From the NCBI GenBank assembly GCA_963770835.1, contig CAVYRH010000004.1, forward strand, positions 224,001-288,000: a stretch of 64,000 nt of DNA. Direction: 5' to 3'. Below, one piece after another: positions 36,001-51,000 of this stretch (its first letter is position 1; each line of letters begins with the position of its first letter). Source of the DNA: an uncultured Pseudomonadota bacterium. Its GTDB lineage: Bacteria > Oederibacteriota > Muellerivitia > Muellerivitales > Muellerivitaceae. Position numbers: made by a program.

Positions 36001-39000
36001 TATTACGAGAAGATCGGCAAAACCAACGACCTAAAGGCCCTGACGGACGGCCCCGCTTATGGTTTTTCAACCGCCATCCGGTACATCAACGAGGAACGGC
36101 GCCGGAACCCCCCCGCGCCCGGGCCGGGGGCCAACTAAGATGGCCTTCTCCCTCAGAGAACAAACCGGGGATCTTTTTTTAAAGACCTTCGCGGCCAAGC
36201 CCGAAATAACGGTGATGGCACCGGGCAGGGTCAACCTGATCGGGGAGCACACCGATTACAACGAGGGCTATGTCCTGCCCATGGCGGTGGACCGGGGCAT
36301 CGCCATCGCGGGCCGCAAACGCAACGACCTCAAGATCACCCTTTATTCCGCCGATTACCAGGAACAGGACGAGTTTTCCGTGAACGCCATCCGGCACGAT
36401 ATCAGCCGGCCCTGGGCCAATTACTTCAAGGGAGTGGCCCTGCTGTTGAAGCAAAACGGAATCCCATTAGGCGGCTGTGAGGCCGTCCTCAAGGGCGACC
36501 TGCCGCAAGGCGGGGGCTTGAGTTCCTCCGCGGCGCTGGAAGTGGCCTCGGCGGTTTTCCTGAAAAAGCTCTTCGGCGTGGACATGGAAGACCTGGATTT
36601 GGTCCGTCTCGCCCAAAAAGCGGAGAATGAATTCGTGGGCGTGCAATGCGGGATCATGGACCAGTTCGCCTCCCACATGGGAGGCAAGGACCACGCCCTT
36701 TTCATCGATTGCCGCAGCCTGGAGCACGACTGGGTCCCCCTGGGAACGGGCTTGAAAGTGGTGGTTTTCAACACGGGCATCAAACGGGAGCTGGCCTCCT
36801 CCGATTACAATGAGAGGCGGCGCCAGTGCGAGGAGGGGGTCCGCGAGTTCTTGAAGTTCCTGCCGGGCATCCAGTCCTTAAGGGACGTTTCCCTCTGCGA
36901 CTTCGAGAAATACCAGGCCCAGCTGGAACCGGTGATCATGAAACGCTGCAGGCACGTGATTTCCGAAAACCAAAGGGTATTGGATACCGTGGAAGCCCTG
37001 AAGGCCAAGAACCTTGAAAGGGTGAAAGTGCTCTTCCGTGAATCCCACGAGAGCCTCCGGGACGATTATGAAGTCAGCTGCCACGAGCTGGACACGCTGG
37101 TGGAATTGGGCCAGGAACATCCGCTTCAGAAGGGCTCCCGCATGACGGGCGCGGGTTTCGGGGGCTGCACCGTGCACTTGGTGCCCGCCGAGGAACAGGT
37201 CGTGGAAAACTTCATCTCTTTCGTTTCGGAAGGCTACCAAAGGCGGATCGGCCGGAAGCCGGAATATTACGTTTTCACGGCCTCGCCGGGAGCGAAGTTC
37301 CTTAACGGCTAAGATTGAACCACAGAGTACACAGAGGACACGGAGTAAGGCCTGAAATATAAATATCATCCTTAATTGTTTAAGACTTACTTTGTGTACT
37401 CTGTGACCTCTGTGGTGATAGTTTTTTGCCGGAAATCTTTTATTTAGGAACCATCAATGAAACCCACACTCCTCATCATGGCCGCCGGCATGGGAAGCCG
37501 CTACGGGGGCCTCAAGCAAATGGAAGCCATGGGCCCCGAGGGCGCCACGCTGCTGGATTATTCCATTTACGACGCCATCCGCGCGGGGTTCGGGAAAGTG
37601 GTTTTCGTCATCCGCCATGACATCGAAGCGAATTTCAAGAAACTGGTGGGGAAGAAGTGGGAACCCCAAATCCCAGTCCGCTACGTCTTCCAGGAATTGG
37701 GCATGATCCCGGAGGGGTTCAAAGTCCGGGAGGGCCGCCAAAAGCCCTGGGGAACGGGCCACGCCGTTTGGGTGGCCCAGGGCGCCATCCAAGAGCCCTT
37801 CGCGGTCATCAATGCTGACGATTTTTACGGGCGGAATTCCTTCAAGGCGCTGGCCGGTTTCCTGAAAAAAATCCGCCAGAACGAGGCGGCAGCCTATGCC
37901 ATGGTGGGTTTTCCCCTTTCGAAGACCCTTTCCGAACACGGGACCGTGGCCCGGGGAATCTGCCGGATCGGGCCGGGGAAGAAACTCAAGGAAGTGGTGG
38001 AACGCCTCCAGATCGGCAAGGAAGGCCGGAAGATTTATTACCTGGACGAGTCGGGGCGGAAGCACCCTTTGAAAGGGACGGCCACGGCCTCCATGAATAT
38101 CTGGGGCTTTACACCCCGTCTTTTCGAACAGCTCAACCGGGGCTTCATGGAATTTTTAAAGCAAAAGGGCGGTGATTTGAAGGCCGAGTTCCTCCTGCCC
38201 CGCGCGGTGGATGACGCCATCGCCAAACGGAAGGCCACCGTCCAGGTGCTTTCCACCAAGGACCCCTGGTTCGGGGTGACCTACCCGAACGACAAGGAAA
38301 AGGTCCGGGCCAAGATGGAAGAACAGGTTAAAAGACACCTTTACCCCGTCCGGCTTCATTAATCCATTCGAACCGGTTGTTTTCTTCCTCGATGAACCCG
38401 CCCTGAAACTTTTTTCACCCTCCCCCTGAACTATCAAAGAAGGGATTCAGGAGAAGGCTGAAATAAAAAGTAAAGTGATCGACGTTTTTACAACATCTCA
38501 ATTTTCGGATCTGGAGGGTGGAGAGGCATGCACGTATAATGGTTAACCGTTAACTTTATTTTGACCTGTGGAATTCGTGCCGCACCCCTTTTTTTCTGAA
38601 TCGAATCATGATTAGTTTGTTAGACTGGCCTTCAAGAGCGATCGAAAGGGAGCCCCACCACCGTTGAAAACGATCCCGATCTTAACTAGTTCCCTGGCGG
38701 TTTTGCTTTTGGCCGGCTGTGGAGCGGTTTTCGTGAACAAGGGTTCGGTCCAGGAACCCTTAAGCGACGGCCTGGTCAACCCGGACCAGAATCGCCCCAA
38801 GATCACCGTACCCCATGACCAGGAAGTCATCGGCAATTTCGATGACGGCTCCACCAATATGAACCCCCAGCTTTACAAAGCCCCCAACGGCACCTGGTCC
38901 GCCTATTCCTACGCGGGTAACACCGTGAATTATCCCTTCGTCGTCGCGGGCGGCGCGAACGGCACCAAGATGGCCGCCCACGTTTCCGGGACACTCGCCA

Positions 39001-48000: not shown

Positions 48001-51000
48001 GAAACGACATCGGTACGGCGGCAAACCAATCAGGAACCTGGTATGACCAAGGGGGGCAGGGGGTAACCGGCGTCGTGAGTTGGGCCACCCCTGGTTATAA
48101 CGGTTCCACGGGTTGTTTTCAGAGCTTCGTCACCTTTACAACGACAGGACAATCGGACCAGATTCAGTACAATTTGCCAAGCCCGATGAACTGGACCTCA
48201 ATGGGAGTTATCGGTATCCGCGCAGAAGTTTGGGTCGACAATACCCTGGATAACACGACCCCCGTGGCTCAACAATTCACCTCAAGCGGCTCGGGTTCCG
48301 TTTGGGAATATGGCGGTTATACCAGCTTGACGGCCAACGCATGGACATTTACCAGTTTTGTCCCCCCTTTCAGCACTACCGGAACCGATCCAACCAACGT
48401 CAAAAGTTTCTGGTTCAGGATTACGACGAACGGCGGCACGTCGTTTGGCAGTGGAAACGTCAAACTAGACAATATCGAGCTTTATTAGCCCCGTGCCGGG
48501 CTAGGGGCCTGTCCCCGCCTTGCGCGGGCTTCCCAAAAAGTTCTTCGCTACTTCCACGCAATCGGGATATTGGTTCATCTTGACGACCTTCCGGTAGTAG
48601 ATCCGGGCTTCCCTCTGTTTGCCCATCCGGGCCAAGGTGTTTCCCATGTTGAAAACATAAAGGCTCTCCTGCGGATTTTTCTGGCTGGCGATGAGGAGGT
48701 ATTTGAAGGTGTGGGCCCAATCCTCCTTGGTGGAGTAATAGGCGGCCAGTGAATTGTAGGCGAAGGAGTCATTGGGAAAATAAGTGAGAGCCAGGCGGCA
48801 CAGCCGATGGGCGTGATCCCAATTGTCCGGGCCACCCTGGCCCAGGTAATAAGCGATTGGCTGGTGGATCAAGGGTTTGATGAAATGGGAACGGGGTTGG
48901 GGCAGTTCCTGGTCGCCCGCCCATCTGAGCTTTTCCTTGTTCTTGCGTTTATCCGCGTATTGGAGGGCGTGAATCAACACGTTATATTGGGAATTGAAGT
49001 CGCCCATGTCCTGATAGAGGCGGGCCAGGTTGAAGGAAATGTCCAGGCGCCAGGGGCGGGAAGCGATGGCAGCCTGCCAGCAAGTGACGGACTGGGACAT
49101 CAAGGCCCGGTCAAAATAGGAAGGGTCCCTGGCGGGAGGATCGGTCCCTGGTACGGACGGCGGGCACCAAACCACTGGTGTTTCCACCACCGCCGGCTTG
49201 GAAAGAGGGGGCGCTTTGCTTTCGGCCTTCAAGAAAAAATAATTTCCCGCGGCCACGAACCATTCGGCGTCGTCCGGATTGGTTTGACGCCAATCCTGGA
49301 GGGTTTTTTCCATCGTGCCAAAATCACTTTTTTGGAATTGCGCGTCGAATTGCTCCGGATAGCCCGCGAAAGCCCGTGAAAAAAAACTCGCCACCAGCAG
49401 GAGGGCGGGCACAAAGTTCCGCATGGATGATCCTTTCGCGCACAGGATAAGGGACGAAAGAACGCAGTTCCATTTTTGTTTTGGAAGATCTAGGGGGCGG
49501 GGCTATTTCAAAAGGTTGGGTGAGTGGGTTAAATTCGAAGAAAAATAAGGAAAACTATTGAACCACAGAGTACACAGAGGTCGCAGAGTGAAATCCTTAT
49601 GGCTTAACAAATTCTTGTGCGTTCCTCTGTATACTCCGTGAACTCTGTGGTTTTAGAAGTTTTTTTAAGAAAAAAGCTGGCTGTTGGAGGGGCCCAGGTC
49701 TTTTAAAAGATGCCGGTAATAATGGTTGACCCAGTCATTGAAGGTGTTCTCCTTCGTGCCACCCTTGATCTCCCATTCGGCGTCAAGGTCGTCCAGGAAC
49801 TTTTCGTAGGCGTCTACTGTATCCAGAAAAACCCAGCTTTTTTTGCGGAGAATGCCTTTTTTCATGATGCACTCCGTGTGGCTGTGATAGATCCGGTTAA
49901 AATTATTGCATAATAAGTGCCACAAAGTTTTTCCGGATAACGTGAAAGAAAGGCTTAAACCATTAGTTTTATCCCTTAACAATCGTGAAGGAGCAACATT
50001 TATTGGTGATTTTAGGCGGGCATTTTTAGGAATGAGAAGATTTTTAGGAATGATTTTTAGAACCATGTCAAATCTTCAAGGAATTTGTCAGATATTCCTT
50101 GAAAACCACAACTAAGCGTCGGAACAAGGAGACCCAAATGCTATTTGAACCTTTTCGCTTAAGGGATATCACATTGAGAAACCGTATCGTGGTCTCGCCC
50201 ATGTGCCAGTATTCCTACGAGGACGGGTTCTCCAACGACTGGCAGCTGGTGCACCTGGGCAGCCGCGCCGCCGGAGGGGCGGGATTGGTTTTCGCCGAGG
50301 CCACGGCGGTGGAGGAAAGGGGCCGCATCAGCCCCGGCGACCTGGGGATTTGGAAGGACGCTCATATCGAGCCCTTGGCCCGGGTGGCCCATTTCGTGGC
50401 CTCCATGGGGGCAGCGCCGGGCATCCAACTGGCCCATGCGGGCCGAAAGGCTTCCACCGGCGTTCCATGGGTCACGGACAAGCCCCTGAGGGAAAAAGAA
50501 GGCGGCTGGAAAACCGTCGGTCCCAGCGCCGTCCCCTTTTCCGAGGGCTACTCAACGCCTGAAGCCCTGGATAAGGCCGGAATCACCCAAGTCGTGAAGG
50601 CTTTCCAGGCGGCGGCCCGGCGGGCGAAGCAGGCGGGGTTCCAGGTTTTGGAAATCCACGCGGCCCATGGGTACCTGATCAACGAATTCCTTTCACCCCT
50701 TTCCAACAAGAGGGAAGACGAATATGGGGGTTCCTTCGAGAACCGCGCCCGGCTTTTAAGGGAAGTGGTGAAAGCAGTGCGGGAAGAATGGCCCGAAAAA
50801 TACCCGCTTTTTTCCCGGTTTTCCGCCACCGAGTGGACGGAGGGGGGATGGGCGGTGGAGGATTCGGTGGAACTGGCCAAGGTTTTAAAGAAAGAGGGCG
50901 TGGACTTGATTGACTGTTCCAGCGGCGGCAACATGCCGGGGGTGAAGATCAACGTTGTGCCCGGCTACCAGGTTCCCCTCGCCGAGCGGATCCGCAAAGA

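Follow-up and report, generated by a model that had tools for sequence, protein, structure and literature searches.

Relatives of the Cytophaga barrels CHU_1276 and CHU_1277 carry predicted OmpM-like tethers in conserved three-barrel operons of candidate phylum FCPU426

In Cytophaga hutchinsonii, chu_1276, chu_1277 and chu_1279 are each required for cellulose use, and the SusC/D homologues are dispensable (PMC12016534, PMC5553014). These genes belong to the chu_1276-1280 cluster, an atypical PUL that encodes, in order, an X barrel (CHU_1276, reported as a barrel model), a Y barrel (CHU_1277) and CBM-like lipoproteins, with no SusD pair (PMC12016534). Transport through CHU_1276/1277 is not demonstrated in the literature passages covered. 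A second relevant system is OmpM, typified by Veillonella parvula OmpM1 (PDB 8bys/8bym/8bz2), which has a signal peptide, a single SLH-like domain, a coiled-coil stalk and, at its C-terminus, a barrel; SLH ligands sit in grooves between repeats (PMC10628300). A 2021 survey defines OmpM by an SLH domain over the PF00395 cut-off, and its statement that OmpM is "completely absent from Gracilicutes" rests on that cut-off; its main text mentions neither FCPU426 nor Goldbacteria (bioRxiv 2021.05.31.446380). Deinococcus SlpA and other SlpA-like connectors are likewise tripartite with a large barrel, of 8 to 30 strands; SlpA assembles as a homotrimer and has a long stalk, and the passages covered give it no tie to glycan loci (PMC9388160).

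We analysed a window (the whole stretch of DNA, 64,000 nucleotides) from an uncultured bacterium whose relatives are candidate phylum FCPU426. An RpoB tree, a single-gene tree, places this phylum on the Gracilicutes side, and passages from the literature agree, as a first-pass annotation of the window had proposed. The window holds one of three copies of an operon encoding three barrel types, A, B and C, in fixed and conserved order, with three predicted lipoproteins, L1 to L3:

36140..38362, + strand: galactokinase and nucleotidyltransferase (Pfam), directly upstream context, outside the module
38664..39419, + strand: L1, 251-aa predicted lipoprotein (lipobox by eye), one CBM11-like domain, partner gene directly upstream of A
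39446..41893, + strand: type A, 815 aa, signal peptide, SLH-like domain, coiled-coil stalk, large predicted barrel, CHU_1276 (X) family
39530..39685, + strand: SLH-like domain of A, T-R-x-E motif present, SLH tryptophan absent
39779..39949, + strand: predicted coiled-coil stalk of A, constant in length, heptad-like hydrophobic pattern
41936..44119, + strand: type B, about 727 aa, signal peptide, SLH-like domain, stalk, plug-less predicted barrel, CHU_1277 (Y) family (frame open from 41894, start placed at 41936)
42011..42160, + strand: SLH-like domain of B, SLH tryptophan present, T-R-x-E replaced by T-N-L-E, aligned to OmpM1
42227..42370, + strand: B's predicted coiled-coil stalk, which aligns with that of OmpM1
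44103..46445, + strand: type C, 780 aa, paralogue of B (CHU_1277 family), SLH-like domain and stalk
44244..44387, + strand: SLH-like domain of C, arginine of T-R-x-E present, SLH tryptophan absent
46429..47151, + strand: L2, 240-aa predicted lipoprotein, CBM11-like, paralogue of L1 (35%)
47262..48488, + strand: L3, predicted lipoprotein of about 408 aa, two related domains with a Pro/Thr linker

The operon was found in nearly all genomes of the class: type B in 32/32 and type A in 31/32, confirming that the three operons are real and conserved. Gene order and a 1:1:1 A:B:C gene number were the same in 35 of 37 loci, and L1 lay directly upstream of A in 31 of the 32 class loci with upstream DNA. 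Across the phylum, the B profile went unmatched in 40 of 99 genomes. Promoter and terminator scans gave no excess over shuffles (5 vs 3.3 and 12 vs 13.5). No RNA holder was listed for the operon, which says nothing about its expression.

PDB profile searches matched the SLH domain of OmpM1 with A (E 1.2e-5), with B (E 1.8e-5, stalk included) and with C (E 7.4e-4, 8bz2), and they matched OmpM1 with the Goldbacteria X profile (E 1e-8); none of these searches returned SlpA. Look-alikes of A in the Atlas were mostly SLH-barrel clusters (0.94-0.96). A, B and C have an OmpM-like plan with a predicted barrel, with homology of the SLH domain and stalk detectable in sequence. Unlike in OmpM, the SLH domain lies below the Pfam cut-off: PF00395 had no match at its gathering cut-off in the source genome, and none over cut-off on A, B, C, 37 type-C rows or 20 barrels from other classes. 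The ligand-site motifs are also split between chains. Among 70 type A rows, the T-R-x-E arginine position is R in 63 and K in the other 7, and the arginine is present in 37/37 type C rows; type B has the tryptophan in 97/102 rows and the asparagine of T-N-L-E in 102/102. Thus the Trp is found only in B and the Arg only in A and C, and no chain has both. Stalk length was constant within each type (71/72 A rows, 106/107 B rows), and the preceding linker was variable. A PDB match of A annotated as "50 kDa outer membrane protein" was rejected because it covered a coiled-coil stretch only (E 0.009). Further differences from OmpM are the three divergent types per operon, the accompanying lipoproteins, the lack of a CsaB equivalog over cut-off and the Gracilicutes-side host. 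The proposed extension of OmpM-type tethers beyond Terrabacteria is not wholly new, because Chlorobi and Bacteroidetes had already been named as carriers of SlpA/OmpM-like proteins (section 9 of PMC9388160).

The barrels told a different story. PDB matches of A, B and C end at the stalk, and none of their profiles matched the 16-stranded barrel of OmpM; the Goldbacteria X profile gave only a 2-bit first-strand trace on that barrel, and barrel-only family profiles had no OmpM match. By profile comparison, the closest barrel family is CHU_1276/CHU_1277, not OmpM, a kinship that the first-pass annotation had missed. B matched stand-alone Y barrels in profile-profile comparison (100%, E 2e-39, 496 columns), and the gene in the CHU_1277 position was matched by the B HMM (E 1.3e-18) and the C HMM (E 3.8e-11). 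B and C are 25% identical and form a clade (100/99). A single-profile search with A did not reach CHU_1276 directly at E 1e-3; the tie is made by profile-profile comparison and by a bridge through the two-barrel operons of Goldbacteria: A vs Goldbacteria X (99.5%, E 5e-23, 706 columns), the Goldbacteria X set vs the CHU_1276 family (100%, E 3e-43), and A vs the X family directly (96.2%, E 2e-9). At locus L188, X (747 aa), Y (606 aa), a 380-aa gene and a 375-aa CHU_1279-type gene are followed by GH9; the 375-aa gene has 6/6 of the published CHU_1279 residues (W89, F92, F180, Y253, F256, F343; PMC12016534). A C. aurantiaca locus (L213) has the same gene order. One of the sequence searches covered the best 150 of 370 matches, and a word-limited search with the Goldbacteria X profile yielded only 13 close relatives and no barrel homologue with an SLH domain from Terrabacteria, which is not evidence of absence.

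The predicted barrels of A, B and C span about 580-645 aa, with 15-19 amphipathic strands by a crude count and a C-terminal Phe/Tyr in nearly all rows. Their homologues have weak OMP Pfam matches. Across A, B, C, L1-L3 and 73 distant homologues, Pfam gave no family-defining match and two generic OMP barrel matches only. A PDB match to OprF (E 8e-4) was set aside as a short generic barrel stretch. Like SusC/SusD utilisomes, the operons pair large predicted barrels with putative surface glycan-binding lipoproteins near glycoside hydrolases. However, utilisomes use a TonB-dependent plugged barrel with SusD, and A, B and C have neither: they lack a TBDR Pfam match and a plug, there is no space for one ahead of the first strand in B, C and Bacteroidota Y barrels, and SusD is absent from the source genome, the one genome searched. 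We therefore ruled out a SusC identity. The genome's 9 PF00593 matches all lie away from the operon, and the genome has 8 TonB-dependent receptors over cut-off.

We then turned to the lipoproteins. The L1/L2 family profile matched CtCBM11 in the PDB (2lro/1v0a/6r3m, E 3-4e-6), bearing out the view that they are CBM-like; a narrower profile gave E 0.35 against CBM11. L1 is 43-62% identical among 27 aligned rows, and family members from other classes have CBM_11 or CIA30 Pfam matches. The C-domain of CHU_1279 is likewise reported to resemble CBM11 6R3M (PMC12016534), but the L1/L2 profile did not match the CHU_1279-type protein, so the likeness shown is one of fold rather than orthology. L3 itself had no Pfam match; it has an internal repeat (E 9e-39, domains 43% identical) and one distant relative with a galactose-binding-like Pfam match, and is probably an accessory protein of tandem CBM-like modules.

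Because the barrels are homologous to CHU_1276/CHU_1277 and the lipoproteins match CBM11, the A-B-C operon is, by homology, a chu_1276-1280-type SusCD-independent cellulose-use module with a predicted OmpM-like tether. The glycan role suggested earlier for these genes is thereby tied to the C. hutchinsonii cluster. The two differ in that here an SLH-like domain and stalk are present on all barrels, duplication of Y brings the barrels to three, one lipoprotein lies upstream of the barrels, and the window's operon has no endoglucanase. The genomic setting varies. The window's copy adjoins only the galactokinase, the copy on contig C8 adjoins GH44, a sugar SBP, GH2 and GH31, and the C26 copy lies in a housekeeping setting. 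Nine of 18 scanned class loci have an rlmD-like gene on one side and lepA on the other, and the ORFs scanned there include no GH; a GH or sugar SBP lies close to 6 of the 9 non-housekeeping loci. Loci of other classes adjoin GH9, GH44, GH2, GH31, GH29 and CBM11/CBM9 genes, those of Goldbacteria GH9, and sugar SBP/ABC genes lie downstream of several operons.

Operons were either X-Y, as in the two-barrel Goldbacteria, or X-Y-Y'; X was never doubled. Fibrobacter also has an X-Y-Y' locus, which lies between CBM30/GH5 and GH18 and has a CBM30/CBM11-like gene and a lipoprotein as flanking neighbours; from gene order only, it is probably Fisuc_1526-1528 of F. succinogenes S85. Its barrels, which the literature passages searched do not discuss, differ from A, B and C in having a short N-terminal coil without SLH, and Bacteroidota barrels are bare. 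B+C (100/99) and Fibrobacter Y+Y' (100/100) form separate clades, so the third barrel gene arose at least twice. Independent duplications of Y in FCPU426 and in Fibrobacter, each leading to a three-barrel operon, suggest an X:Y:Y' heterotrimer. A candidate third duplication (L061; support 82/62, long branches) was left out of the count.

Two of the supports offered earlier are weak. The CsaB-like pyruvyltransferase of the source genome scores 66 bits against the 213 cut-off of TIGR03609, which no class genome passes (0/32, weak in 7/32). The gene passes PF04230, the CsaB criterion of the OmpM survey (bioRxiv 2021.05.31.446380), and lies in a Wzx/Wzy-type exopolysaccharide cluster; we dropped it as support for a pyruvyl ligand. 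The apparent lack of Pal (below cut-off in the source genome; TolB_N 0/32) is weak support, as controls passed these insensitive tests in only 2/14 genomes and the genome encodes another tether type, OmpA-domain proteins. With these proteins and the 8 TonB-dependent receptors, neither uptake nor tethering need depend on the operon.

Taken together, these results suggest that A, B and C are CHU_1276/CHU_1277-family barrels fused to an OmpM-like SLH domain and stalk, and probably form one wall-tied A:B:C heterotrimer that passes glucan fragments from the CBM11-like lipoproteins to the periplasm without TonB (probability about 0.55). A single tethered sugar-import channel is likely because each barrel is fused to a likely cell-wall anchor. 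BamA would insert the barrels into the outer membrane, and the chains would trimerise through their stalks with a 1:1:1 stoichiometry that would have evolved from an earlier X:Y2 trimer. The SLH trimer would bind the cell wall, probably through a ligand other than a CsaB-pyruvylated polymer. Surface-displayed lipoproteins would capture glucan fragments, and the sugar would diffuse through the channel. The housekeeping-adjacent copy may be a constitutive tether and porin, and the GH-adjacent extra copies may be substrate-tuned.

A, B and C could instead be co-transcribed yet separate homotrimeric tethered porins, each with its own selectivity, like OmpM paralogues. The solved OmpM/SlpA structures are all homotrimers (PMC10628300, PMC9388160), the stalk of A exceeds the B and C stalks by a few residues, and the three are net acidic, with no clear complementarity of charge. 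Yet the invariant order and 1:1:1 gene number, the independent doublings of Y and never of X, and the split SLH site speak against separate homotrimers: because Trp and Arg lie on different chains, no homotrimer would hold both. We consider this arrangement unlikely. Somewhat less probable still, the complex may be mainly a housekeeping tether and general porin of the class, with glycan uptake incidental or restricted to accessory copies. Its near-universal presence, the housekeeping position of the commonest copy (including C26) and the Pal and TolB_N results fit such a role; however, L1 and downstream CBM11-like lipoproteins also accompany the housekeeping-context copies, the untethered Cytophaga homologues are required for cellulose use, OmpA-domain proteins offer alternative tethers, and the B profile is unmatched in much of the phylum. 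We give little credence to a platform role, in which the barrels would hold or export glycan-binding lipoproteins and enzymes at the cell surface and would not be a sugar channel. Cell-associated beta-glucosidase activity is indeed lost in chu_1276 and chu_1277 mutants (PMC5553014), but growth on low glucose is poor in mutants of chu_1276 and of chu_1279 (PMC12016534), which fits uptake, and the sugar SBP/ABC genes that follow several operons also count against a platform.

Beyond the heterotrimeric channel favoured here for FCPU426, we tentatively consider that CHU_1276/1277-type barrels may be a class of glycan channels, widespread and so far unrecognised, that are plug-less and obligately heterotrimeric (X:Y2, with two separate refinements to X:Y:Y'). 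Cytophaga, Fibrobacter and Goldbacteria/FCPU426, as contact-dependent cellulose degraders, would share this route of uptake across the outer membrane. Their SLH-stalk form could be either an ancestral OmpM-like state, which the Gracilicutes side kept and then lost step by step (only a coil left in Fibrobacterota, none in Bacteroidota), or a later fusion. The literature searched, with most subscription papers outside it, gave no description of the FCPU426 A, B and C proteins, no link of CHU_1276/1277 to SLH-stalk proteins or Fibrobacter barrels, and no heterotrimeric OmpM. How cellulose products cross the outer membrane of Cytophaga and Fibrobacter independently of SusCD is a long-standing open question; the genetically essential CHU_1276/1277 pair is now joined to a Fibrobacter three-barrel locus and to tethered FCPU426/Goldbacteria forms, and the predicted stoichiometry is testable in culturable hosts. 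An OmpM-type tether plan that is near-universal in one Gracilicutes-side class, yet missed by the Pfam cut-off, bears on the history of outer-membrane attachment.

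The window (C4:224001-288000) encodes three large proteins of a predicted SLH-stalk-barrel plan (A, B and C) together with three predicted lipoproteins (L1, L2 and L3):

38664-48488, plus strand: six-gene operon in the order L1, A, B, C, L2, L3

The B/C and C/L2 junctions each overlap by 17 nt, and none of the six products passed a Pfam cut-off. Further A-B-C operons lie on contigs C8 (where L1 is missing) and C26 of the same genome. Same-type proteins of the three operons are 45–57% identical, B and C are ~25% identical, and A as a single-sequence query matched neither B nor C. 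The operon genes are intact despite a broken rpoC elsewhere in the assembly (C11:52302-56297, locus L385), which is in several frames, probably through assembly indel errors; given this split gene, other broken genes in the genome call for caution. The first-pass annotation had reported a fixed A-B-C order, with B in 32 and A in 31 of 32 genomes of the class (Muellerivitia). We obtained the same counts, B being near full length in all 32, and the order held in 35 of 37 class loci fetched around B matches, the other two ending at a contig edge. L1 lies immediately 5' of A in 31/32 class loci having upstream DNA. Across the phylum (Oederibacteriota), 59 of 99 genomes had a B match of some kind, and 7/8 loci of named relatives are titled candidate division FCPU426.

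We searched the PDB with three profiles, built from 107 rows for B, 74 for A and 37 for C. The best match of each was the SLH region of OmpM1, from the Veillonella parvula tether family (E 1.8e-5, 1.2e-5 and 7.4e-4, respectively); the B profile also aligned the OmpM1 stalk, and no match of the three profiles reached into the barrel. Atlas neighbours of A were mostly SLH-barrel clusters (0.94–0.96). The OmpM plan proposed earlier holds for SLH and stalk but not for Pfam SLH or barrel homology, and formal OmpM membership was rejected on these two grounds. A PF00395 search of the genome gave no match. A 2021 survey (bioRxiv 2021.05.31.446380) counts as OmpM those barrel proteins whose PF00395 match reaches the gathering cut-off; because of this requirement, A, B and C would escape it. 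Stalk length is constant within type (71/72 rows of A, 106/107 of B and 35/37 of C), and the Pro-rich linker N-terminal to the stalk varies widely. The SLH tryptophan is retained only in B and the T-R-x-E arginine only in A and C; PMC10628300 attributes ligand binding to both, in the inter-repeat grooves of SLH. Some type-A proteins (P0141, P0149; loci L031, L032) carry TPR repeats in precomputed Pfam.

We wondered where the barrels belong. The best 150 of 370 matches of an exhaustive B profile search included stand-alone barrels of ~570 aa and 660–700 aa. A motif scan of GTDB genomes (at least 122 stretches, then HMM checks) placed such barrels in Bacteroidota, Rhodothermales and Fibrobacterota; HMM support was absent for 4 of 80 loci among the matches listed. 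In 11 of 12 inspected loci, the B-like gene (Y) is immediately preceded by another large gene (X), the twelfth locus starting within Y, and lipoprotein-like or glycosidase-like genes follow X-Y in 11. One locus has the order:

L188: X (747 aa), Y (606 aa), 380-aa gene, 375-aa gene, GH9

The 375-aa product has 6/6 residues published for CHU_1279, and locus L213 (named C. aurantiaca) has the same layout. This layout is the chu_1276-1280 cellulose-use cluster, described in Cytophaga hutchinsonii, X and Y being the CHU_1276 and CHU_1277 families. Parts of two reports describe chu_1276, chu_1277 and chu_1279 as each necessary for cellulose use, without SusCD (PMC12016534, PMC5553014).

Y was matched by the B HMM (E 1e-18) and the C HMM (E 4e-11), and profile-profile comparison joined B to the Y family (100% over 496 columns) and A to the X family (96%, E 2e-9). 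The A HMM alone did not match CHU_1276. The two are bridged by proteins of the phylum's other classes, a few of which are named Goldbacteria, matching A (99.5% over 706 columns), the X family (100%) and the OmpM1 SLH (E 1e-8). X and Y are distant paralogues of each other (99%). By sequence comparison, A, B and C have an OmpM-like front half and barrels that belong with CHU_1276/CHU_1277. A crude count gave 15–19 clear strands, some being overlooked. Since the first strand starts directly behind the stalk or signal peptide in B, C and Bacteroidota Y, no space is left in these for a plug, in keeping with the plug-less barrels proposed earlier. One phylum member seemingly lacks most of the SLH-stalk, a possible loss inside the phylum:

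L245:6742-10494, plus strand: X-Y barrels of 650 and 588 aa

Of the 41 genomes in the Sporocytophaga family set, 39 have the Y family, as do 31/51 Fibrobacterota. Twenty Fibrobacterota loci chosen from Y matches comprised 11 X-Y and 9 X-Y-Y' (Y', second Y copy); their barrels have a short N-terminal coil, with no SLH seen. Other-class loci of the phylum (22 among the matches listed) were 20 X-Y, 1 X-Y-Y' and 1 incomplete. We built trees of Y-type barrels with FastTree (n=104) and IQ-TREE (41 of those). In both, B+C and Fibrobacter Y+Y' formed separate clades (100/99 and 100/100, respectively, in IQ-TREE); therefore, three-barrel operons arose at least twice, each time by Y doubling. A putative X:Y2 trimer would permit such repeated Y doubling, which also agrees with the split SLH motifs; stalk charge analysis added nothing for this reading. 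In F. succinogenes S85, four genes lie between Fisuc_1525 (CBM30) and Fisuc_1530 (GH18) and, by order alone, would match X, Y, Y' and the lipoprotein of locus L193. Some Cytophagales (G061, G066, G067, G072, G073) have 7–9 CHU_1277-family matches per genome, which suggests a SusC-like substrate-specific expansion.

The CBM-like character of the lipoproteins, first noted from a weak CIA30/CBM match, was strengthened. The initial L1/L2 profile gave weak CBM11 and CIA30 hints only (Atlas leads, 0.90–0.91); widened with other-class members, it matched Clostridium CBM11 (2lro, 1v0a, 6r3m; E 3–4e-6). PMC12016534 names 6R3M as the fold of the C-domain of CHU_1279. The L1/L2 profile gave no match to the CHU_1279-type protein itself. 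L3 carries two related domains.

Around 18 of the 37 class loci, we examined neighbouring ORFs of 330 aa or more. Nine had an rlmD-like/lepA housekeeping setting, like the C26 copy; five had a glycoside hydrolase, three a sugar-type SBP (six either), and three none of these settings. The C8 copy adjoins GH44 and GH2, as reported before, and also an SBP and GH31. Selected neighbours of other-class loci included GH9, GH44, GH2, GH31, GH29, CBM11/CBM9 and BNR-repeat proteins, the last presumably GH74-like. Goldbacteria are reported as CBM11-rich cellulose degraders (PMC7031533, in section 7). Other genes nearby, those of the window read by eye, were:

Window 30477-31734, minus strand, and 32378-33538, plus strand: acireductone dioxygenase and MtnB, probably a methionine-salvage pair, with a MoeB-rhodanese gene
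Window 51693-57271, plus strand, 3' of the operon: glucose-dehydrogenase-like, glycogen-debranching-like and glutamine-synthetase-like genes
C26:413451-418076 (L003:3452-8077): RlmD-like tRNA/rRNA methyltransferase (TRAM + SAM domain) fused to ~900 unannotated residues; several genomes have 1240–1450-aa versions 5' of the core operon

The genome has BamA and eight TonB-dependent receptors over cut-off, and a SusD search of it found none. Pal was below cut-off in this genome and TolB_N was found in 0/32 class genomes, in line with the earlier claims, but both models passed in just 2/14 controls, and five OmpA-domain proteins exist: by sequence reading, one MotB-like flagellar, one lipoprotein and three barrel-linked:

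C4:758450-758959 (L064): 169-aa OmpA-domain lipoprotein, Pal-shaped, under the TIGR02802 cut-off, not adjoining tolB
C19:60765-63014, C11:245292-247049 and C11:209699-212098: PorV-like barrel, Ig-like part and OmpA domain

The CsaB-like gene lost its value as support: CsaB was over cut-off in 0/32 class genomes, and this genome's candidate, the sole polysaccharide pyruvyltransferase found, sits inside a Wzx/Wzy-type exopolysaccharide cluster (C5:79960-94830). Many proteins end in FlgD-Ig/T9SS-like tails; with the PorV-like OmpA-domain proteins, these are a hint that FCPU426 may sort proteins by a T9SS-like system with a wall-anchored barrel.

In a single-gene RpoB tree (71 sequences, 1041 columns, several deep phyla left out), eight phylum members grouped together (0.978) on the Gracilicutes side (0.891), in support of the earlier placement; parts of PMC7031533 and PMC12057145 put FCPU426/Goldbacteria close to Elusimicrobia and PVC. 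Two MAG labels were misplaced: L340 and L278 (titled Verrucomicrobiales and Spirochaetia) fell beside Actinobacteria and Myxococcota-related sequences and are likely mis-binned contigs. SlpA-like proteins were already listed for Chlorobi and Bacteroidetes (PMC9388160, in section 9), so the claim that an OmpM-type tether is seen here for the first time outside Terrabacteria loses weight.

Taken together, we give a probability of about 0.55 to A:B:C being a wall-tethered heterotrimeric, TonB-independent glucan uptake gate. The three barrels would assemble as one heterotrimer tethered to the wall, and glucan would pass without TonB. The heteromeric, SusCD-independent glycan porin of the first-pass annotation gains homology to Cytophaga CHU_1276/1277, while the heteromer itself stays putative. 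What is new is the residue-level anchoring of this barrel family to the characterised chu_1276-1280 cluster, the bridge joining A to CHU_1276, the Fibrobacter trio X-Y-Y', the independent Y duplications and the SLH motif split between chains.
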